Sequence record: OR911937.1
DNA length: 52,757 bases
From: Escherichia phage vB_EcoM_SD350
Strand: one strand, 5' to 3'
This document shows positions 4,565 through 43,888 of the stretch, piece by piece; the stretch's first letter is position 1; each line of letters starts with the position of its first letter. The notes under the pieces were generated by a model. The model was not told where the DNA came from and ran no database searches. It worked only from the letters and a program-made list of their open reading frames with translations. A program made the translations under genes and the position numbers.

Positions 4565-5062
4565 GTGGGTAACATTATGAAAATTGTTCAATTAGAGCCA
4601 TATCCGCCTCAATTGGCTATTGTTTGTAGTGAAAAAGAGCACGAAGAGCTCCAAAAACTGATGGATTTGCCTGATTTTGGCAACTGGAATGACCGAGAAA
4701 CGCGTACTGCATCTACCTATACGTTCACTCGCGTTAACTACCCGTATCTGTTAATCGTCGTCGAGCTGTACCACCCGGACGACCTGAAGTACAACACCAT
4801 TTCCCACGAAGGCATTCACGTAATGTCAACGCTGATGAACTATGTTGGCCTTAAATACGACCCGGAAAACGATGAATGGTACGCATATCAGCATGATTTC
4901 ATCGTAAATGCCATTTGTAAGGCCCATGACGAGTACATTGAGCGCCAAAAAACGCCAAAAACTAAGCCAAAAATCGAAACAGGTAATCATCCTGCTATAC
5001 TGCCACAAGACGTAATGAACTCGCTTTTGACTGACACTACTGGGGACTTTTTAGGTGATTAA
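4565..5062 (+). CDS. hypothetical protein with HExxH motif (possible small zinc metallopeptidase-like)
   Basis: 165-aa ORF with HEGIH; start may be GTG at 4565 or ATG at 4577. Confidence 0.45.
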   Translation: MGNIMKIVQLEPYPPQLAIVCSEKEHEELQKLMDLPDFGNWNDRETRTASTYTFTRVNYPYLLIVVELYHPDDLKYNTISHEGIHVMSTLMNYVGLKYDPENDEWYAYQHDFIVNAICKAHDEYIERQKTPKTKPKIETGNHPAILPQDVMNSLLTDTTGDFLGD

Positions 5063-5729
5063 TATAATCTTTGCAATGGGCCAAAATGGGGAATTCGGGT
5101 TATCTCCGGAGTTTATGAAGCATCAGGTTGACTCGTGCAAGACCATGGAAGAGGTTCGTGCGCTTCCTAAATCGGGTCTGCCCTGGAAATGTCCGTCAGA
5201 CATGCTCTTTTTCAGGACTATGACTAATTCAATTGCGACAGAACCAGGCTATAATGCATATCAGCAGCTACGTGGACAATTCCCAAATGGCCAGTTGCGA
5301 AATATGATAGCAGATGTAACGGTAAAAATGGTCGGGCATAGTGTATTGTTAGCCGGTCGTAACACGTATATGACTATGAGTCTGCCTATGTCAGCCCACA
5401 GAATACTGCTGCCGGTATCTCGCCAGATTATGGCTTCAGAAGGCTACAATAATCTGGGTGAGATGGCCGCAGACCTTGAGTCCAGAGGTACTGACGTCTG
5501 GATTGTAGGTGGTGCCGAGTTGATACTTTCGGCCCTTGAAGAACACGCAAAAGACTTACTCCGTATCGACAACATGTTTATCAGTACAATCAAGCAATCA
5601 GGTCCAAGTGATATTTTAATGGATCGTAGCAAATTAATGATGTACATTGATAGCGACTTCACTTATAATGATGAATATGTTGATAACAAACAAGTTCTGA
5701 TACAACGGTACAGGAGTTTACACAAATGA
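5055..5729 (+). CDS. dihydrofolate reductase-like protein
   Basis: Motifs IIFAMGQNGEFG, LPW, LLAGRNTY..SLP and VWIVGGAEL in the order seen in DHFRs; GTG start overlapping the upstream stop; longer than typical DHFR (224 aa). Confidence 0.55.
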   Translation: MINIIFAMGQNGEFGLSPEFMKHQVDSCKTMEEVRALPKSGLPWKCPSDMLFFRTMTNSIATEPGYNAYQQLRGQFPNGQLRNMIADVTVKMVGHSVLLAGRNTYMTMSLPMSAHRILLPVSRQIMASEGYNNLGEMAADLESRGTDVWIVGGAELILSALEEHAKDLLRIDNMFISTIKQSGPSDILMDRSKLMMYIDSDFTYNDEYVDNKQVLIQRYRSLHK

Positions 5730-6232
5730 ACATCATAATCGAGGGGCCCGACAATGCTGGTAAATCTACACTTATTGAGTTCCTTAAATCTCGTACTGGC
5801 CGCAATGTTATTCATAATACTGTTGATAAAGACCCCGAATCGGTCATGGCTAAACAGGCCAAAGAAAACTCGTTGGAAGGCGATTGCATTTATGATCGTA
5901 GCGCTGTTATATCTGAGTATATCTATTGCCTGGTTCTTCAACGTACGCCTGTCATCAATATTAATGTATCACATGTAGCAGATATGTGTGACAACGCTAT
6001 CGTTATCTTTTGTATGCCGCCTGTTGAAAAGGTACTGGCAACTACAAAAGACGAAATGCCTGGTGTTGTGGAAAATCTTGAGGCGTTATACAATCAGTAT
6101 GACAACCTCATTGACGAGCTGGTTATGATGAGTAAGCAGTTCTTCATTTACGACTGGACTGTTGAAGAAGACGGTCCTGAAGCAGCTCTCGAATATATCA
6201 ATGAACGTATTAATAAGGAGTGGAACAAATGA
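5726..6232 (+). CDS. thymidylate-kinase-like P-loop nucleotide kinase
   Basis: IIIEGPDNAGKST P-loop and a DRS segment resembling the Tmk DR(Y/H) motif; 168 aa. Confidence 0.5.
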   Translation: MNIIIEGPDNAGKSTLIEFLKSRTGRNVIHNTVDKDPESVMAKQAKENSLEGDCIYDRSAVISEYIYCLVLQRTPVININVSHVADMCDNAIVIFCMPPVEKVLATTKDEMPGVVENLEALYNQYDNLIDELVMMSKQFFIYDWTVEEDGPEAALEYINERINKEWNK

Positions 6233-34496: not shown

Positions 34497-36464
34497 TTAG
34501 TGTGCCTCTGCCCAGTTACTTTCTATCTTAGCATCAGTAAGAACAGGCACACGAAGCGGTAGTACAGTTTCCATGACCCGTACGAAATCATAGAATCCAT
34601 CTTCTGCTTGCTTACCGGTTGGTAGAGAGAAGTTAAGCTCATCGTGTACCGTCAGGCGAGGTACGCCAATCACGTCAAAGTAACCGTCTTCATACCCTTT
34701 CAGCATTGCAGACTTCATCTGGTCTGCTGACGACCCTTGCAGCACTCGGTTGATTGCTTTGTGGGTGTCTGCCAGTTTAATGTTTGGACCATACTCCTGA
34801 CGTGCTTCTTCAAATGGCAAAGGCATCTTCCCGAATCCACCACGTTTTGGGACCCATTTGTTGAACCACGTCTTCCGGCCCATAAAGGTTTCTACATACC
34901 CCTGGCTATAGCATAAATCTTCATAATGCTTCATGGTAGCACCAATGAATGGTGCACCCTGATGGTACGCCTTCAGAACAGGTTCTGCTTCTTCAGGCGT
35001 CATTGCTAACTTACGGGCAAGAGCATTAAGCATCATGCCGTACAACAAACCAAAGTTAATGGTCTTAGCCGGTTTACGCTCTATAACGTGACCTGAGGCT
35101 TCCTTGATAATATCGACCATAACATTGTGGTAATCTGCTTCCGGGTTAGCCGCGAAAATTGCTCGTAACTCATCAGCGCCCGGGCCGACTGCAAAATGCG
35201 CCATGAATCGATATTCAATTTGGGCGTAGTCTGCTGATCCCCATCTGTGTCCGACATCCGGTACGAAACAAGCACGAAGGAGTGGTCCCAGTATTTTGTG
35301 TCGAGACGGTATATTCTGCAGATTAGGGTCAGATGAGCTAAACCGACCACTAACGGTTCCGCCGTCATCACCGCGCATTTGATGGAATTGACCGTGAAGG
35401 AAGCCATTTGTATTCATCCCCAAGATATAGCCACGAATAAACGTGGACTGTATTTTCTCATAAGACTTAATCTCAGACACCAGTTCCGCAAACGGATGGT
35501 GTAAGCCTGCTAAGAAGTCTGCCGTAAACGACGGATTGCCCGCCGCTGTTCTGAAGTACTCCAGACCTAAATGGTCAAATGCAAGAGCTAAGTCCGGACC
35601 TGAGTTAACGTTAATGTTAAAGCCAATCTGGTCTTTAATCTGCTGGTGCATTTTCCTTATTTCAGCGCTAAGCGTATCATCCGCCTCTTTGGCCTTGTCA
35701 AGGTCAACACGCACACCTGCAAAACGCATCTTAAGCATTAATGGAATGAGCTTGCACTCCATATAGAATACGTCTGTTAAACACCAGCGACTTAACAATG
35801 GCCACTGGGCTTTGATAATGTGTATTGGTAAGTCGGCATCAGATTCAGCATAGTAACCCACAAGACGAGGAGGCGTTTTGTAGATGTACTTTCTGGCTTC
35901 ACCTGTTGGCTTACAGCCATAAGCATCTGAAATCCATTGGTACATCTCGGCTGAGTCTTTACCTTCGCCTACATATTTTCGTCCAAGTCCTTCAAGTGCA
36001 ACACGCGCGCCTGGGTCAAGTAATGCTTCCGCGAATTGTACATCCATGCACAATCCTTTAACTTCCACGCCTTCTGCTGCAAGCCAGCCCAAGTCATATG
36101 TGATGTTAGCACCGACTTTAACTTGGTTAGGTCGCGAGAGTTCGAGCCGAAGCCAACCAAGTACTTCCTCAGCTGGAAGGTTATCCTCTTCGCCGAGCTC
36201 GTGTCTGATTGGGTAGTAAGCTTTGAAGCCGTTGTCCGTAGCGATACTAACTCCAACGATATGACCCTCCCTCCTGGCCCAACCACTACCATTTGTATCC
36301 ATCCCTGGGTCGTATGTTTCACAGTCAAGACCGATAATCTTTGCAGAAGACAGGTCTGGGTAATGCGCGCGCGGCCGCCATCCAGTATCCCTGACGTATG
36401 GGATAGGACGGTTGATAGGTTTAACATTCTTTGCACCTTCGAAGCTATCGAATAAAAAGCTCAT
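34497..36464 (-). CDS. DNA polymerase, family A, with 3'-5' exonuclease domain
   Basis: 655 aa; exo motif LDCETY; polymerase motifs DYAQIEYR (A), KPAKTINFGLLYGM (B), VHDEL (C); no 5'-3' exonuclease domain. Confidence 0.8.
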   Translation of the reverse strand: MSFLFDSFEGAKNVKPINRPIPYVRDTGWRPRAHYPDLSSAKIIGLDCETYDPGMDTNGSGWARREGHIVGVSIATDNGFKAYYPIRHELGEEDNLPAEEVLGWLRLELSRPNQVKVGANITYDLGWLAAEGVEVKGLCMDVQFAEALLDPGARVALEGLGRKYVGEGKDSAEMYQWISDAYGCKPTGEARKYIYKTPPRLVGYYAESDADLPIHIIKAQWPLLSRWCLTDVFYMECKLIPLMLKMRFAGVRVDLDKAKEADDTLSAEIRKMHQQIKDQIGFNINVNSGPDLALAFDHLGLEYFRTAAGNPSFTADFLAGLHHPFAELVSEIKSYEKIQSTFIRGYILGMNTNGFLHGQFHQMRGDDGGTVSGRFSSSDPNLQNIPSRHKILGPLLRACFVPDVGHRWGSADYAQIEYRFMAHFAVGPGADELRAIFAANPEADYHNVMVDIIKEASGHVIERKPAKTINFGLLYGMMLNALARKLAMTPEEAEPVLKAYHQGAPFIGATMKHYEDLCYSQGYVETFMGRKTWFNKWVPKRGGFGKMPLPFEEARQEYGPNIKLADTHKAINRVLQGSSADQMKSAMLKGYEDGYFDVIGVPRLTVHDELNFSLPTGKQAEDGFYDFVRVMETVLPLRVPVLTDAKIESNWAEAH

Positions 36465-37459
36465 CAGTCCCCTCTCACATACGCAATTACAACTGTACGA
36501 GTTGAGTTTTCCATTTTGAGCGCCTGACTACCAAGTCCTATTCTTTCCATGCCTTTAGCCAGTTTACTCATCTGACTAATAACACAGTTGAACGGTTTAC
36601 TAAACTTAGTCGACTGGAACTTAATGTCGACGGACATCTTTGGAATAATCTTATCTGGTAAGTCTGCCTTTGCAGTTGACTCGCCTGTTATCTCCAGAAT
36701 AGCCTGACCTTCGTCGTACCCAGTAAGCTGGTCCATGACTTCCAGGAACTCAGGAGTGATGGCCTGCATATCCATTTCCATATTGAAGAACTTAGATACG
36801 TCTGGCCATTTGGCCGCAAGTACCGGAGCATCCATCTGTACACCATCCGCAAAGCCGAAGAACATCTGGCCGCGGGCGTATCCTACACTTGTGGGTTCCA
36901 TCTTCAGCTTAACCAGAGCCTCAAGCATTGGTTTGGCTATGGCACATTCAAATTCAAAATCTACGTTCAACTTCTCACGTATCATATACTTACCGTTAGT
37001 TGCGTAAGCATAACCATCGCGCAGAAGTAAAGATGTCGCCCATACCTGCGGTGCTTCGTTAGGTACCCACTTGGCTAAGGCAGTTAATACCGGGAGTAAT
37101 TCGCCATGCGCTGAATACCAGTTGTTAACTGTAGCAAGTGGCGGTATTGGTTCATTAAGCGCTTGCATTCTTGTTTTAAGTACACCTGCTGTGACTGTGA
37201 GGTTTCCAGCGGCTGTAATGTTAAAAGTAATCTGTTCAGTTCTTGCCGCATTAACGGCCTTACGAAATGATTCAGCATCCACTTGCAGGTCTGGAAATCC
37301 TTTACATGGCGCTCGTAGTAATACGTTCTTGTAGTATGAATGGATTGTTCCGTCTGCAATCCATATTTTGCCCATAAGACCACTATCAGTATACTTGATG
37401 GGACGAGCTTGTTGAACGGCAGTCTGTATTTGTTTGGTGTCATAGTTAAACTTGCTCAT
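36464..37459 (-). CDS. hypothetical protein between the TS-family gene and polymerase
   Basis: 331 aa, no motif assigned; stop overlaps the polymerase start (ATGA). Confidence 0.5.
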   Translation of the reverse strand: MSKFNYDTKQIQTAVQQARPIKYTDSGLMGKIWIADGTIHSYYKNVLLRAPCKGFPDLQVDAESFRKAVNAARTEQITFNITAAGNLTVTAGVLKTRMQALNEPIPPLATVNNWYSAHGELLPVLTALAKWVPNEAPQVWATSLLLRDGYAYATNGKYMIREKLNVDFEFECAIAKPMLEALVKLKMEPTSVGYARGQMFFGFADGVQMDAPVLAAKWPDVSKFFNMEMDMQAITPEFLEVMDQLTGYDEGQAILEITGESTAKADLPDKIIPKMSVDIKFQSTKFSKPFNCVISQMSKLAKGMERIGLGSQALKMENSTRTVVIAYVRGD

Positions 37460-37489: not shown

Positions 37490-38374
37490 TTATACGGCCA
37501 TTTGGAGTTTGATGTTTGGCATTGGTTTGTACTTCTCAACCATTGGCGTAACATCGGCAGGAGTGAAGTCAAACACTGACACGTCATAAATTGCATTAAT
37601 GTCAGGACGACCTTCAAAGTTAGTGTCCAGTGTAGTATCAGAATTGCTTACGATACGTTGCAGGAAAATCTTTGCCGCATCGATATGATTCTGATAGATG
37701 TGATAATCACCCAGCGTAACAGTCATATCACCTACCCCAGTACCCAGCTCAGCAGCAATGGTAATCTGCAACATCTGATGCAGCAGAATATCGTGAGGCA
37801 GGCCAAGAATAACATCCGCGCTACGCATGTGGAACATCAGCTCTAACTCATTACGGTTATTAATGAACAGCTGAAAGCCATGGTAACAAGGCGGAAGGGC
37901 CATGGCGTCCATCTCTTGTGGGTTCCATGCCGTAATGTATGCCCGGCGGTCAGTAGGCTTAACCTTCAGCGTTTCAATAACATCTTTAAGCTGGTTAGTA
38001 AGAACACCATTCTTATAGAATGGCTTAATCCATTGCACGCCGTACACAGGACCTAAGTCACGGTTGTCTGGCGTACCCCAACGTTTGTTTGCGTCCTGCA
38101 GGTTACCTTCCCACCAGTTGCAGCCAAAGCCTTTTAGCGTGTCGACGTTTGAAATACCGTTGATAAAGCAGTAAAGCTCAGCAGCAACAGCTTTGATGTT
38201 AACAGGCTTAAACACCGGCACCATCAGTTTGTTGTCGTTGAAAGCCAGCTTAAATGCTGTACCAAAACAACGGCGGGTACCAACACCTGTACGGTCTACA
38301 ACATCCTCACCTTTACGCAGGATAAAAGAAATGATGTCGCTGTAAAGAGAATCGACAGTGCTGTATGTTTTCAT
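37490..38374 (-). CDS. thymidylate-synthase-family pyrimidine C5-modifying enzyme, predicted dCMP-specific
   Basis: DRTGVGT, LGPVYGVQW, DRRAYITAWN, ALPPC (catalytic Cys), GDYHIY align to ThyA motifs; LGLPHD has Asp where ThyA has Asn177 (LGLPFN); Tyr follows the catalytic Cys instead of His. Confidence 0.75.
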   Translation of the reverse strand: MKTYSTVDSLYSDIISFILRKGEDVVDRTGVGTRRCFGTAFKLAFNDNKLMVPVFKPVNIKAVAAELYCFINGISNVDTLKGFGCNWWEGNLQDANKRWGTPDNRDLGPVYGVQWIKPFYKNGVLTNQLKDVIETLKVKPTDRRAYITAWNPQEMDAMALPPCYHGFQLFINNRNELELMFHMRSADVILGLPHDILLHQMLQITIAAELGTGVGDMTVTLGDYHIYQNHIDAAKIFLQRIVSNSDTTLDTNFEGRPDINAIYDVSVFDFTPADVTPMVEKYKPMPNIKLQMAV

Positions 38375-38967
38375 TAAAACAGTTCCTTTTGAGCCGGGTT
38401 AACGTGTGCGTCGATGATGGACTGGATGTCAGGTGCTTTCCACCCTTCAGGCTTAACAATATCCTGACCAGACTTATGCTTGCTGTTGCTTGCATCAGGC
38501 TTAGCGCGTTCTTTCGCCATGTTAGCAGCCTGTACCGCATCCCATGCTGCGTCAAGTGGCCAGTTATTGTTTGCACACCAGGTAATCAGGTGGATAATTA
38601 ACTGGGCCAGACGGTCGCAATGAGTGTCTTCAGTATCCTTAACATATACAATAAGGCCATCAGCATCGAAACGGTCCATAAATCCGCATGGCGTAGTTAA
38701 CAGAATCGGATACTCAAATTCGTTGGTGAACCATGCAGTCTGGTCATACAAGTATAACGTACCTGCGGCAATGTAAATTAAATCTACAATACCATCTAAG
38801 AAGCCAGCTTTGTCGCCGTCCTTCTTAGCTTGTTTAATTTCTTCCATCTCCTCAATAAGACGGTCGTAACGAAGCTTGAACTCAGGTTTACCGCCTTGAC
38901 TAACAGGCTTGAGGTCAAACTTCTCATGAAAAGCGGTAACGCCTGCAGCAATTTTACTGAATCGCAT
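38374..38967 (-). CDS. MazG-like all-alpha NTP pyrophosphohydrolase
   Basis: 197 aa; acidic helix RLIEEMEEIKQA...DGIVDLIYIA typical of MazG-like pyrophosphatases; adjoins the TS-family gene. Confidence 0.5.
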   Translation of the reverse strand: MRFSKIAAGVTAFHEKFDLKPVSQGGKPEFKLRYDRLIEEMEEIKQAKKDGDKAGFLDGIVDLIYIAAGTLYLYDQTAWFTNEFEYPILLTTPCGFMDRFDADGLIVYVKDTEDTHCDRLAQLIIHLITWCANNNWPLDAAWDAVQAANMAKERAKPDASNSKHKSGQDIVKPEGWKAPDIQSIIDAHVNPAQKELF

Positions 38968-39352
38968 TTCGTAACTCCTTACAAACAGTTTCGATAAACT
39001 TACGCTTAATTTCTGTAGACCAGATAATATGACGAGCCTGTTCTAAAGTGTCCCAACGTTCTTTACCCACAGGAAAGGGAACAATGAAAAGGCCGGTACG
39101 GGATATGCGCTTGATAAACGGGAATTTACAGCGCATGGTTGTTTCAAACTTGATAAAGTTTGTTTGCACATCGCGTGTAAACTTGACCTTATCAAATTCA
39201 TGTTCAAGAGTTTGAGCAATGTTGCATACTTCCTGGAAAGAAGATGCAGGCAAGTAATCTTCGCGGCCGACGGTGTTCACGTAGTCGATTTGGCCTTCTA
39301 GTCGAAGTATCCAAATCCTGTAATAAGCTTCAGCAACACGTTGTAGATTCAT
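38954..39352 (-). CDS. hypothetical protein, coupled to the MazG-like gene
   Basis: 132-aa ORF whose stop overlaps the MazG-like start by 14 nt; first gene after the 39377-39407 promoter. Confidence 0.5.
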   Translation of the reverse strand: MNLQRVAEAYYRIWILRLEGQIDYVNTVGREDYLPASSFQEVCNIAQTLEHEFDKVKFTRDVQTNFIKFETTMRCKFPFIKRISRTGLFIVPFPVGKERWDTLEQARHIIWSTEIKRKFIETVCKELRNAIQ

Positions 39353-39376: not shown

Positions 39377-39407
39377 TTATTATACCACATCACTCTCTAG
39401 TGGTAAA
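39377..39407 (-). promoter_or_regulatory. leftward promoter with CCAC/GTGG inverted repeat and extended -10
   Basis: Minus strand reads TTTACCAC-N-GTGGTATAAT (TTTACC-N17-TATAAT); related copies at 42505-42533, 45745-45770, 48865-48897. Confidence 0.45.
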
Positions 39408-39432
39408 GCACTTTTTACGCTTCTGGTAAAAA

Positions 39433-39462
39433 TAAAAAGGACCAGCGTTAACTGGTCCTTTT
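39433..39462. terminator. bidirectional intrinsic terminator
   Basis: AAAAGGACCAG-cgttaa-CTGGTCCTTTT: perfect 7-bp GC-rich stem flanked by A and T runs. Confidence 0.65.
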
Positions 39463-40029: not shown

Positions 40030-40497
40030 TTATTCAGCAACTTCTTCGTTGTCGCCTTCGATCGCGCCAGCCAGTTTAGCAGCTTCAGCTTTAGCAGCTT
40101 CTGCTTTCTGGCGAGCTTTTTCAGCTTTCTCTTCAGCTTTGCGAATCTGCTCAGCAGCTTTCGCTTCGGCTTTTTCAGCTTTGATGCGAGCACGCTCTTC
40201 AGCTTTACGCTGTTTTTCAGCGGCTTTAGCAGCATCGCGTTCTGCTTTAGCGGTATCAACACGCTTAGCCAGAACTTTACCAGTGGCTTTACGCCAGTAG
40301 GTCAGCTGGGAAGAAACAGTACCACGGGACATTTCGGTAGTGGCAACAACTTCGTCCATAACGTCAGAGCTGGACTTGCCTTCTTCATGGGCTTTATCAG
40401 CCAGGTCCCATACATAACGTGCACCAGTACCAGCTGCCGGATACAGTACGCCGTTAACTTCTTCTTTACCAGTTACAAAAGTCAGTTTCTCGCTCAT
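40030..40497 (-). CDS. protein with Lys/Ala/Glu-rich low-complexity C-terminal tail
   Basis: Start set at MSEKL (GAGGA upstream); C-terminal ~70 aa is AKAERDAAKAAEKQRKAEERARIKAEKAEAKAAEQIRKAEEKAEKARQKAEAAKAEAAK. Confidence 0.5.
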   Translation of the reverse strand: MSEKLTFVTGKEEVNGVLYPAAGTGARYVWDLADKAHEEGKSSSDVMDEVVATTEMSRGTVSSQLTYWRKATGKVLAKRVDTAKAERDAAKAAEKQRKAEERARIKAEKAEAKAAEQIRKAEEKAEKARQKAEAAKAEAAKLAGAIEGDNEEVAE

Positions 40498-40603
40498 AAT
40501 TTTTTCCTCGTCTACAGGGCTTAATGTTTGTTCGTTACGTGAGTTAATATACGTCATTTAAAAGAGTGTGTAAACACCTTTTTTAAACTTTTTTCATTAG
40601 TGT

Positions 40604-42540: not shown

Positions 42541-43419
42541 TTATTTTAAGGAAAGTTTAACGGGCTTCTCATCCTGCGGGAAGACATCAGCAGGGCGATA
42601 ATCATCACAAGCTGCTAATTGCTCTTCGAGTGTTTCGAGTTCTTTCTGGTGCTTGTTGCAATACCACACTTTGCCCTGAAGCGGTTTACTGTAATGGCAG
42701 GTTCTGCAGTTCCTGTCTGGCATTGCTCCTTTGTGGCACAGGTGATGGTATTCGCACATCCCTGGTTTGCACTCCCACCAAATAGGCGATTCAGAAATCT
42801 TCGGCATATCCAAACCAGATTCCGCATATACAACAGCCTCCGCTTTACTCAGTTGTATGTCGCTTTCCAGTAAGTCAATCTCGACCACCTCAAAATACAT
42901 CTCGTCGGTGTTCTTATTGATTGCGATGTACACAGCTTGATTCAGCTTAAGCTTCCGCATGTATACCTGCATCTGGGCATAGTGTACCGGCTTACTTGCT
43001 TTAACAGACTTGAGCTTGACTAACTCTTTAAACGACTTATCGCCATGCGTCTTGAATTCAGCAAGTGCCCATACGCCTTTGTATTTAATTACACAGTCAC
43101 AAGACCCAGAGAAGATGCCATTGAATTCGTGTATGCGCCACTGCTTACCAGTCTTGGGATTGACGTCCAGCACTTCGTCACATACGGAACGAAGCCACTT
43201 TACAATTCTGCTTTCTTCAAGGTTACCACGTTCAAACAGACGAAGTTGCTTAGCTGTAAACTTCTCCTTGAACGACCAGTGCAGAACGTGCCAAAGATAG
43301 CGATAGCAGTTGTGTCCTATCTGTGATGCTCCAAGATGCCCGCGTCGTTCTTCTCTTTCGTGGGCTTCAACTATCTTGATGTCAATACGTTTCTGCAGGT
43401 CGTCAAACGGACTTGGCAT
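42541..43419 (-). CDS. PD-(D/E)xK exonuclease, RecB/Cas4-like with Cys cluster
   Basis: EFK and QMQVY nuclease motifs plus C-terminal Cys cluster (CKPGMC, C, C..C); start set at MPSPFDD (GAGGAG upstream), not the track start 43536. Confidence 0.55.
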   Translation of the reverse strand: MPSPFDDLQKRIDIKIVEAHEREERRGHLGASQIGHNCYRYLWHVLHWSFKEKFTAKQLRLFERGNLEESRIVKWLRSVCDEVLDVNPKTGKQWRIHEFNGIFSGSCDCVIKYKGVWALAEFKTHGDKSFKELVKLKSVKASKPVHYAQMQVYMRKLKLNQAVYIAINKNTDEMYFEVVEIDLLESDIQLSKAEAVVYAESGLDMPKISESPIWWECKPGMCEYHHLCHKGAMPDRNCRTCHYSKPLQGKVWYCNKHQKELETLEEQLAACDDYRPADVFPQDEKPVKLSLK

Positions 43420-43888
43420 TGTTAAACTCCTCAACGCTGAATTCATCGTACACAATATTATGAGCCCACAAGTGAGCGACGGCATTTGCCATGCTGTCCT
43501 TCCATTTGGATTGAGAAGCGGTATGTGCCAATGCAACTACACGTACCAGGTTAAGGTTGGCTATCAGCATGTCAGCACAATGTTCGCACGGCGGGTAGGT
43601 TATGTAGATGGTAACCGGGCCTAAAGAAGGAGTGTCTAACTCACTCCTTATGTTAGCTAAGGTGTTTATCTCGCTATGAATAGTTAGAGCGTTCTTAAGG
43701 CTATTAGGCACTATTCTTATAGAGTCTAGCTGCGTAGGTAGACCGTTATATCCAGTGGAAATGATACGCTTGTTCTGGTCCACAAGAACGCTACCGACTT
43801 GACGTTTAGGGTCCTTCGACCAGCTCGCAACTTCACAAGCTATGCGCATAAACCGCCTATCCCACTTGTCCATCTTCTTCTTTTGCAT
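43403..43888 (-). CDS. dCMP deaminase-family zinc deaminase
   Basis: 161 aa; HSE and PCEHC zinc-binding motifs of the cytidine/dCMP deaminase fold. Confidence 0.65.
   Translation of the reverse strand: MQKKKMDKWDRRFMRIACEVASWSKDPKRQVGSVLVDQNKRIISTGYNGLPTQLDSIRIVPNSLKNALTIHSEINTLANIRSELDTPSLGPVTIYITYPPCEHCADMLIANLNLVRVVALAHTASQSKWKDSMANAVAHLWAHNIVYDEFSVEEFNNAKSV

Follow-up and report, generated by a model that had tools for sequence, protein, structure and literature searches.

Whether a phage gene that looks like a thymidylate synthase (TS) makes thymidylate, or has instead been turned to cytosine, is the question raised by positions 37490-38967 (minus strand) of the window, the whole 52,757-nucleotide stretch of Escherichia phage vB_EcoM_SD350 (OR911937.1) analysed here. 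The source genome is that of a Rosemountvirus (97-99% identity with Salmonella phage BP63 and E. coli phage swi3), and the GenBank label of the gene is 'thymidylate synthase' in every one of about 60 related records. A preliminary description had instead proposed a ThyA homologue switched to dCMP, assisted by a MazG-like pyrophosphatase and by DHFR-like, kinase-like and deaminase-like genes elsewhere, all of which we located as follows.

5055-5729, plus strand: dihydrofolate-reductase (DHFR)-like protein, 224 aa (Pfam DHFR_1 4.3e-7 over residues 94-188; phrog_316 2e-26)
5726-6232, plus strand: P-loop nucleoside-monophosphate-kinase-like protein, 168 aa (phrog_761 'thymidylate kinase', 5.7e-26)
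34497-36464, minus strand: family-A DNA polymerase, downstream of the TS homologue in the same operon
36464-37459, minus strand: processivity factor (clamp), likewise downstream of the TS homologue in the same operon (phrog_947, 1.9e-47, cited for the clamp/polymerase stretch 34497-37459)
37490-38374, minus strand: TS homologue, predicted dCMP C5-methyltransferase, 294 aa (PF00303 2.3e-62, residue table, AF2)
38374-38967, minus strand: all-alpha NTP pyrophosphohydrolase of the MazG/HisE/dimeric-dUTPase superfamily, 197 aa, predicted dCTP (possibly also dUTP) pyrophosphatase
38954-39352, minus strand: conserved 132-aa protein, first operon gene (phrog_36727, PHROG function label "unknown")
39379-39462, minus strand: terminator-like hairpin (39462-39435) followed by a promoter-like site (39407-39379), from a consensus scan
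43403-43888, minus strand: dCMP/cytidine-deaminase-family protein, 161 aa (Pfam dCMP_cyt_deam_1 3.3e-21, MafB19-deam 6.8e-12)

The interval 37490-38967 is filled by its two open reading frames, with the MazG-like gene coupled to the TS homologue through a TAATG stop/start overlap and itself overlapped at its start, by 14 nt, by the 132-aa gene. Below the hairpin and the promoter-like site (TTTACC, a 17-nt spacer, TG and TATAAT), the operon runs through the 132-aa gene, the MazG-like gene, the TS homologue, the clamp and the DNA polymerase; the BP63 record carries an annotated promoter between gp58 and gp57, homologues of the window genes at the promoter-like site. A Pfam profile search returned no match for the 132-aa protein, whose counterpart in phage S144 (ORF45) has an identical position. 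The gene order from the deaminase to the MazG-like gene, TS homologue, clamp and polymerase is kept even at ~53% identity among members of the clade described below, and the kinase-like gene is start/stop-coupled to the DHFR gene. Only one TS-family gene (37490-38374) is present in the genome.

The 294-aa protein matches Pfam Thymidylat_synt (PF00303) at 2.3e-62 over profile positions 3-266 of 266, in line with the motif-by-motif homology to ThyA read earlier from DRTGVGT, LGPVYGVQW, DRRAYITAWN, ALPPCY, LGLPHD and GDYHIY, each of which occurs in the translation. Its AF2 model reached a pLDDT of 94.3 and, used as a Foldseek query, retrieved canonical TS structures only among the best 50 PDB matches (TM 0.8-0.86). 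Equivalences to the E. coli enzyme agreed in three alignments (HMMER against M. tuberculosis ThyA; a MAFFT set of the window protein with E. coli ThyA, Xp12 and T4 gp42; and a 125-sequence set): Cys163 corresponds to the catalytic C146, Tyr164 to H147, Leu160 to L143, Asp187 to D169, His194 to F176 and Asp195 to N177. In E. coli numbering, the window protein and its clade keep Cys146, Glu58, the phosphate-binding arginines of TS (R21, R126, R127 and R166), Tyr94, His207 and Tyr209. Furthermore, the C-terminus (...NIKLQMAV) is ThyA-like, resembling the E. coli tail (...IKAPVAI) that closes over the folate, and its MAV ending is kept across the clade.

Within this framework, the residues that distinguish the protein from ThyA lie in three columns. 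Asp195 takes the place of Asn177, as had been read from LGLPHD, and the alignments that might have displaced it are concordant; the Tyr noted after the catalytic Cys163 is Tyr164, in the His147 column, and His194 replaces Phe176. All 89 ThyA-like hits carry Asn177 and, likewise, His147 and Phe176. The Y147/H176/D177 triad occurs in 31 of 33 clade members (50-100% identity) and in none of the 89 cellular ThyA-like hits of the 125-sequence alignment, so the signature is not due to chance. Asp177 itself is shared by the window protein, its S144 counterpart and 29 of the 31 database clade members, two clade members having Asn177. An exhaustive search separated the clade from non-clade sequences by a large score gap (392 bits versus 208 bits or less); Asp177 was present in 8 of the 12 best non-clade representatives and 35 of 149 overall, all of which also have Leu143 and Asp169. 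Outside the clade, none of the Asp177 homologues examined paired Tyr147 with His176. BLAST scores of the TS homologue were 136-167 bits to ThyA, 92 bits to Xp12 (28% identity) and 35 bits to gp42. The higher score to ThyA than to Xp12 had suggested a separate Asn-to-Asp switch out of ThyA, an idea left unsupported by the eight of twelve nearest non-clade sequences that already have Asp177; judged by sequence comparison, the clade is a single branch within a larger Asp177/Leu143 radiation.

Position 177 had been named as the determinant of dUMP versus dCMP use, and this holds in the literature: E. coli N177D and L. casei N229D TS mutants become dCMP methylases, according to the work quoted in PMC8670742 and PMC13326640, and in MetaGPA (PMC8670742) no positions tell viral contigs with modified cytosine from unmodified ones better than 177 and 147. 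Our alignments place Asp in this column in T4 dCMP hydroxymethylase gp42, as had been stated, and also in the Xp12 enzyme. The window protein thus looks, from its residues, like a natural version of the N177D mutant, sharing with the quoted laboratory enzymes an otherwise intact ThyA with Asp at the specificity position; unlike them, it also carries H147Y, F176H and a loop insertion.

The adjacent 197-aa protein was also correctly recognized as MazG-like. The PRA-PH profile of Pfam (PF01503, MazG/HisE-type) recognises it at 1.9e-7, better than the curated cut-off. The protein has an all-alpha predicted fold and retains conserved acidic metal-binding residues in the first two core helices (E39, E40, E43, D58 and D62, invariant in 31 family members). 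The suggested analogy to T4 dCTPase is borne out in that the predicted fold comes closest to the dimeric dUTPases, a Pfam family that includes T4 dCTPase gp56, and in that PF01503 co-occurs with such TS homologues on modified contigs (PMC8670742; bioRxiv 10.1101/2024.12.05.627091). From this genomic coupling and fold family, the protein is predicted to be a dCTP (possibly also dUTP) pyrophosphatase. In the one Asn177 clade variant with a known upstream gene, that gene lacks the pyrophosphohydrolase catalytic residues, a loss that lends weak support to the best explanation given below.

The remaining genes suggest how a cytosine nucleotide might be carried into DNA. Based on the role described in bioRxiv 10.1101/2024.12.05.627091, the deaminase (34% identity to the Xp12 deaminase, E 2e-18) is predicted to convert 5-methyl-dC nucleotides to thymidine nucleotides. 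The DHFR-like gene, which has a weak tblastn match to the Xp12 DHFR region (E 0.007), is predicted to encode a protein that recycles the dihydrofolate released by reductive methyl transfer. Pfam support for the kinase-like protein consists of sub-threshold N-terminal matches to dNK and Thymidylate_kin, and a sequence search of PDB gave no informative match; phosphorylation of 5-methyl-dCMP is its predicted role, with the substrate assigned from context. The family-A polymerase would have to accept modified dCTP, and on contigs with modified cytosine DNA_pol_A ranks in the top five domains found next to deaminases (bioRxiv 10.1101/2024.12.05.627091).

Taken together, the best explanation is that this phage builds 5-methylcytosine (5mC) DNA at the nucleotide level in the fashion of Xp12, a reading to which we assign a probability of roughly 0.7. 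Replacement of cytosine by 5mC is probable because a TS look-alike apparently set for dCMP is accompanied by the same helper genes as in Xp12. Briefly, the MazG-like enzyme would hydrolyse dCTP, and possibly dUTP as well, to the monophosphate, keeping canonical cytosine out of DNA and supplying dCMP, which the TS homologue would take because Asp195 replaces the uracil-selecting Asn. Normal TS chemistry would follow, with Cys163 adding to C6, transfer of one carbon from methylene-tetrahydrofolate and then hydride transfer, to yield 5-methyl-dCMP and dihydrofolate (the sequence features are observed, the activity predicted). The phage DHFR would return dihydrofolate to tetrahydrofolate, and the phage kinase with host NDP kinase would raise 5-methyl-dCMP to the triphosphate for use by the family-A polymerase. 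By deaminating some of the 5-methyl-dC nucleotides, the deaminase would supply thymidine nucleotides and make a separate dUMP-specific thymidylate synthase unnecessary, and the resulting 5mC DNA would be expected to resist most type II restriction enzymes.

Such resistance has been published for a relative. Phage S144, whose TS homologue is 73.5% identical to that of the window within the same gene pair and synteny, has DNA that was cut by SspI and PacI only, none of seven enzymes with G/C-containing sites being effective; its authors found no gene to account for the resistance and proposed a classical dTTP pathway. Xp12 5mC DNA likewise blocks XhoI, SfoI/KasI/NarI, PspOMI/ApaI, SacII and NotI (isoschizomers of six of the seven S144 enzymes), and T4gt DNA resists XhoI, KasI, SacII and PspOMI; the S144 panel therefore cannot separate 5mC from 5-hydroxymethylcytosine (5hmC), since both reference DNAs resist those enzymes. 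The digests fit cytosine and guanine modification alike, and we set guanine modification aside because the annotations of SPLA9, BP63 and the S144 region include neither DpdA nor genes for 7-deazaguanine synthesis; they show no DNA methyltransferase gene either. The S144 resistance, which comes from a relative, is the only wet-lab support for modified cytosine here: the searched literature gave no report of modified DNA, nucleoside composition or enzyme assay for any Rosemountvirus. Weighing against the 5mC reading, these genera have been described as lacking an extensive set of nucleotide-modifying enzymes (PMC11946847). Overall palindrome avoidance was uninformative alone as a test of modification, palindromes with G/C being no more depleted than A/T-only ones (observed/expected 0.88 versus 0.93). 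Only GATC, with 33 sites, and GATATC were strongly depleted; C5 modification leaves these sites unprotected (DpnII and MboI cut Xp12 DNA, and EcoRV cuts 5hmC DNA), and their depletion weakly supports C5-modified DNA.

If dCMP is the substrate, the product could still be something other than 5-methyl-dCMP. A dCMP hydroxymethylase like T4 gp42, giving virion 5hmC that might be decorated by uncharacterised phage proteins, would share Asp177 with gp42, would fit the S144 pattern equally well given the T4gt resistances, and would have in the dCTPase-like partner the T4 arrangement; many open reading frames, moreover, have no assigned function. We nevertheless consider it unlikely. According to PMC13326640, an acidic residue (Asp or Glu) at position 143 admits water and marks T4-type hydroxymethylases and MilA, and Asn at 169 (D169N) marks 5-hydroxy-dCMP synthases of the RB69 gp48/DLP3 gp80 type. 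The window protein has Leu160 at 143 (Asp in T4 gp42) and Asp187 at 169, which argues against a hydroxymethylase or a 5-hydroxylase; together with Asp177, as in the same Xp12 column, these diagnostic residues point to a dCMP methyltransferase. The full ThyA tail is missing in gp42, which is also more distant than ThyA (35 versus 136-167 bits; top 50 folds all canonical TS). A DHFR is encoded with no other TS gene, although a hydroxymethylase yields no dihydrofolate, and the accessory genes (PF01503 pyrophosphohydrolase, PF00383 deaminase and DHFR) resemble the Xp12 set rather than that of T4. The possibility of further decoration, raised earlier, received no encouragement: the larger open reading frames of no assigned function gave no match to a glycosyltransferase, a TET/JBP-type enzyme or a carbamoyltransferase, related annotations contain none, and no other transferase gene turned up. 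As guides to the product, the residue rules are correlative: Xp12 makes 5mC even though its position 143 is either non-hydrophobic or a gap and the final C-terminal residues are missing. A different C5 product, whether 5-hydroxy-dCMP (RB69, DLP3) or an undescribed one linked to Tyr147/His176, gains some plausibility from the clade-specific pairing of those residues, from the recent demonstration of 5-hydroxylation by TS homologues (PMC13326640), and from a published assay in which five of seven metagenomic homologues predicted as 5mdCMP synthases made 5mdCMP and two gave no 5mdC (bioRxiv 10.1101/2024.12.05.627091); with Asp187 kept in place of D169N, the folate-site residues and C-terminus retained, and sugar-nucleotide and glycosyltransferase genes absent, we regard it as highly improbable. 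The earlier view that the modification could not be decided from sequence was, in our assessment, too cautious, as Leu143, Asp169, the intact ThyA C-terminus, the DHFR and the Xp12-like accessory genes favour 5mC over 5-hydroxymethyl- or 5-hydroxycytosine.

The enzyme might, alternatively, be the ordinary thymidylate synthase of its GenBank label, converting dUMP to dTMP with Asp tolerated, dUMP supplied by the deaminase and the S144 resistance arising from another cause. All other catalytic and folate-binding features of ThyA are intact in a canonical TS fold, two clade members do have Asn177, and dCMP deaminase, TS, DHFR and thymidylate kinase together form the classical dTTP pathway, as proposed for S144. 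Against this, Asn177 is invariant in the 89 ThyA-like hits while Asp is fixed in a clade diverged to 50% identity, tested enzymes lose their preference for dUMP on N177D substitution (as quoted in PMC13326640 and PMC8670742), and Asp177 is statistically tied to modified-cytosine contigs (PMC8670742). The coupled pyrophosphohydrolase, with its catalytic residues intact, would have no role in plain dTMP synthesis, and the G/C-site resistance of S144 DNA has no annotated DNA methyltransferase or 7-deazaguanine gene to explain it, making an ordinary TS very unlikely.

Comparison with known systems places the predicted Xp12-like pathway in context. The Xp12 TS homologue produces 5mdCMP in vivo (bioRxiv 10.1101/2024.12.05.627091), and Xp12 (MT664984), like the window, has Asp177, a replaced His147, a family-A polymerase, a single TS-family gene and a PRA-PH pyrophosphohydrolase gene directly upstream of it; the PRA-PH protein, deaminase and DHFR are each homologous to their window counterparts. 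Unlike the Xp12 enzyme, that of the window has Leu143 and the full ThyA C-terminus and is nearer to cellular ThyA, and its pyrophosphohydrolase has a ~65-residue insertion and lacks the ~120-residue C-terminal extension of Xp12. The four genes form one cluster in Xp12 and lie at three loci in the window, whose phage is an enterobacterial myovirus, whereas Xp12 is a Mesyanzhinovviridae siphovirus; 5mC is proven in Xp12 and predicted here. T4 gp42 and gp56 likewise pair an Asp177 TS-fold enzyme with an all-alpha dCTP-destroying pyrophosphohydrolase so that dCMP is modified before polymerisation, but gp42 (21% identity) has Asp143 and no TS C-terminus, T4 has a true TS in addition, along with glucosyltransferases and a dNMP kinase of another kind, and the product is hydroxymethyl in T4 and predicted to be methyl here. 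Metagenomic Asp177 homologues share the signature at 177 and 147 and the co-occurring PF01503, PF00383, MafB19-deam and DNA_pol_A (PMC8670742; bioRxiv 10.1101/2024.12.05.627091); they come from uncultured contigs, while the window clade consists of cultured phages much used against Salmonella and E. coli. The residue signature and gene set have already been published as predictors, and there is no new principle here.

A more far-reaching reading is that Rosemountvirus and Loughboroughvirus phages and their metagenomic relatives replace cytosine completely with an undescribed derivative rather than plain 5mC, and also carry some means of escaping McrA, McrBC and Mrr. The recorded hosts of relatives CF2 and BEC1-17 are E. 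coli K-12. This strain carries the 5mC-dependent McrA, McrBC and Mrr, which also weighs against the 5mC reading, since such DNA would call for a countermeasure or would have to be poorly recognised. The derivative would then be made by the altered active site or by a conserved protein such as that of the 132-aa first operon gene, and the enzyme, defined by Tyr147/His176/Asp177, would be the most ThyA-like natural dCMP-modifying enzyme known; we consider this proposal distinctly doubtful.

Rosemountvirus and Loughboroughvirus phages have been isolated repeatedly (>60 genomes deposited) and are promoted for Salmonella and E. coli biocontrol. As a predicted natural dCMP methylase that is nearly ThyA-like, the enzyme may be of use in studies of TS specificity evolution and in producing 5mC DNA in E. 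coli. 5mC substitution, if real, would bear on how these phages are cloned, mapped with restriction enzymes and studied by bisulfite or nanopore methods. It would also give the resistance of S144 DNA a genetic cause and make host range with respect to restriction predictable, with type II enzymes mostly resisted and 5mC-dependent type IV enzymes potentially effective. Replacement of cytosine by 5mC, so far associated with Xp12-like siphoviruses of Xanthomonas and Pseudomonas, would then extend to enterobacterial myoviruses.

The window is an essentially complete Rosemountvirus genome that shares 97–99% identity with phages of Salmonella (BP63, LSE7621) and of E. coli (swi3, CF2, JEP7); PP583539.1 ("Listeria phage 220426122051"), 97.8% identical, is recorded with Listeria monocytogenes as host, probably through a host mislabel or a contaminant. 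Coordinates 37490-38967 (-) are filled by exactly two ORFs, the upstream one coupled to the downstream one by a one-base stop/start overlap (TAATG), within an operon-like run:

39462-39379, -, terminator-like hairpin and promoter-like site at the head of the run
38954-39352, -, conserved 132-aa protein (phrog_36727), first gene, overlapping the start of the MazG-like gene by 14 nt
38374-38967, -, 197-aa MazG-like protein, second gene
37490-38374, -, 294-aa thymidylate synthase (TS) homologue, third gene
directly after the TS homologue, a processivity factor and then a family-A DNA polymerase

The 132-aa protein has no Pfam match. A 175-aa protein (40030-40557, -; phrog_28664) carries a long Lys/Ala/Glu-rich C-terminal tail with KAAEK-type repeats and might bind nucleic acid. 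All the related records label the 294-aa gene "thymidylate synthase", and they call the 197-aa gene hypothetical, "Cof hydrolase" or nucleotide pyrophosphohydrolase.

Over its full length, the 294-aa protein matches the TS family (Pfam 2.3e-62; PDB phmmer 1e-40 to many TS), and all 50 best PDB neighbours of its predicted structure (AF2, pLDDT 94.3) are canonical TS. Three independent alignments agreed in placing Cys163 at the catalytic Cys146 of E. coli ThyA, Tyr164 at His147, His194 at Phe176 and Asp195 at Asn177, so that the Asp in the Asn177 column and the Tyr after the catalytic Cys, both claimed in the preliminary description, hold. Glu58, Arg21/126/127/166, Ser167, Asp169, Tyr94, His207, Tyr209 and Leu143 (ThyA numbering, used hereafter) are kept, as is the C-terminal ...MAV tail. 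Homologue searching set P0001-P0031 (at least 50% identical, mostly on contigs of 44–54 kb) apart as a discrete clade, with a large score gap to true ThyA. Tyr147/His176/Asp177 occurs in 31/33 clade sequences (counting the window and phage S144), whereas all 89 ThyA-like hits have His147/Phe176/Asn177; the substitutions are therefore not noise.

Such residues have been tied to cytosine modification by MetaGPA, a physical selection of viral DNA carrying modified cytosine: the TS domain showed the strongest tie to modification, its positions 177 and 147 discriminated best, modified contigs having Asp177, and PF01503 (PRA-PH), PF00383 and MafB19-type deaminases co-occurred with TS (PMC8670742). 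A 2026 paper assigns Asp177 to a dCMP substrate, Asp/Glu143 to hydroxymethylases, bulky Leu143 to keeping water out, and Asn169 to 5-hydroxy-dCMP synthases (PMC13326640). Under these rules, which are correlative, the Asp177/Leu143/Asp169 of the window enzyme is the combination predicted for a methyltransferase. The Xanthomonas phage Xp12 is itself an exception to two of them, at position 143 and in the C-terminal tail. In vivo, 5-methyl-dCMP was made by the TS homologue of Xp12 and by five metagenomic Asp177 homologues out of seven, the other two predicted enzymes failing the assay; the linked deaminase studied, mSCD-B5, converts 5-methyl-dCTP to dTTP, and TS, MafB19-deam, PRA-PH and DNA_pol_A are the commonest neighbours of such deaminases (10.1101/2024.12.05.627091). 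Outside the clade, an exhaustive HMMER search found Asp177/Leu143/Asp169 in 8 of the best 12 relatives and 35/149 overall. Because the nearest non-clade relatives mostly share the combination, we rejected a separate invention as unsupported and place the window enzyme in a wide radiation of predicted dCMP methylases known mostly from metagenomes.

The 197-aa protein proved MazG-like, as first proposed, with a PRA-PH match above the Pfam cut-off; a cluster of acidic residues (E39, E40, E43, D58, D62) is invariant across its family, which also preserves two C-terminal motifs. The proposed analogy with T4 dCTPase is structurally reasonable, since the predicted fold of the 197-aa protein comes closest to dimeric dUTPases, with which gp56 shares a Pfam family (dUTPase_2); the substrate is a prediction. 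S144 also retains the gene with its start/stop coupling to the TS gene, as do metagenomic relatives with only ~53% TS identity. Two clade members, P0013 and P0020, carry Asn177 (AAC vs GAT codon; L009 33-1462, L010 53-931) and Lys127 while retaining Tyr147 and His176, and may represent a reversion to ordinary dTMP synthesis. For P0013, the only one of the two with the upstream gene on its contig, the coupled ORF is a diverged pyrophosphohydrolase homologue that lacks the invariant acidic residues and C-terminal motifs and is no longer recognised by the family profile; this single case fits a functional coupling of Asp177 to an active pyrophosphohydrolase.

The Xp12 TS homologue likewise has Asp177 and lacks His147, and has deaminase and DHFR genes next to it. 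The ORF immediately upstream of this TS homologue is a PF01503 PRA-PH member (L003 46207-46980; 6.6e-15), homologous to the window 197-aa protein (BLASTP 2e-11) and also retrieved with that protein as seed from 5.8 billion sequences. Its label, "hydrolase (HAD superfamily)", is wrong, and "Cof hydrolase" on the homologues in Rosemountvirus looks like that same error, propagated. The deaminases match at 34% identity (2e-18) and the DHFRs weakly (E 0.007); the gene pair and two accessory genes are thus common to the window and a fully 5mC phage. The TS homologues themselves are far apart (28% identity, 92 bits), and ThyA is the closer match to the window enzyme (136–167 bits).

The predicted modified cytosine thus gains support from Asp177/Leu143/Asp169 and the Xp12 gene set, and can be refined: virion DNA probably carries 5mC made by an Xp12-type pathway (probability about 0.68). 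The residues, folds, homologies and synteny were established here; from them we infer every activity and the virion base. The pyrophosphohydrolase would remove dCTP and supply dCMP, which the TS homologue would methylate with methylene-THF, releasing dihydrofolate for recycling by DHFR (5055-5729); phosphorylation by its coupled kinase (5726-6232) and the host's NDP kinase would yield 5-methyl-dCTP for insertion by the phage polymerase, and the deaminase (43403-43888) would send some of the pool towards thymidine nucleotides. The DHFR-like protein (5055-5729, +) has 224 aa (typically ~160), with its Pfam DHFR match limited to residues 94-188 and nothing assigned to its N-terminal third. A caveat is that E. 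coli K-12, which carries 5mC-dependent restriction systems, is the listed host of some relatives.

Restriction data exist for S144 (Loughboroughvirus), whose TS homologue is 73.5% identical to that of the window with the same triad and synteny. Only SspI and PacI cut its DNA, which resisted XhoI, EheI, MauBI, Cfr42I, NotI, Bsp120I and SspDI; the authors of that work deduced a modified cytosine, could name no gene behind it and took the TS for an ordinary one (PMC7432712). According to reference tables, Xp12 5mC DNA blocks XhoI, SfoI/KasI/NarI, PspOMI/ApaI, SacII and NotI, but 5hmC DNA blocks the same enzymes, so the panel does not separate the two bases and would suit 5hmC equally; Leu143 in place of Asp/Glu nevertheless makes 5hmC unlikely. 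An ordinary TS is far less probable still, given Asp177 where all 89 ThyA-like hits have Asn, and another product is about as improbable, 5-hydroxy-dCMP being opposed by Asp169 rather than Asn.

The literature searched held no report of DNA modification in Rosemountvirus, and one paper describes these genera as lacking an extensive set of nucleotide-modifying enzymes. Most palindromes in the window occur at expectation, and CCWGG, CTGCAG, AAGCTT and GAATTC are not avoided, but GATC is ~5x depleted (33 observed vs 163.5 expected) and GATATC absent (0 vs 14.0), a depletion common to BP63, S144 and two distant relatives (L004, L005, L007, L008). Reference tables list complete cutting of Xp12 DNA by DpnII and MboI, and of 5hmC DNA by EcoRV, so C5 modification gives no protection at these sites. 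The depletion could reflect a cytosine-protected genome shunning sites left exposed; we count it as weak support, since Dam- or MutH-related avoidance explains it equally well. Together, the predicted assignments would put right an annotation error found throughout a heavily used group of phages, and would account for the published, unexplained restriction phenotype of S144.
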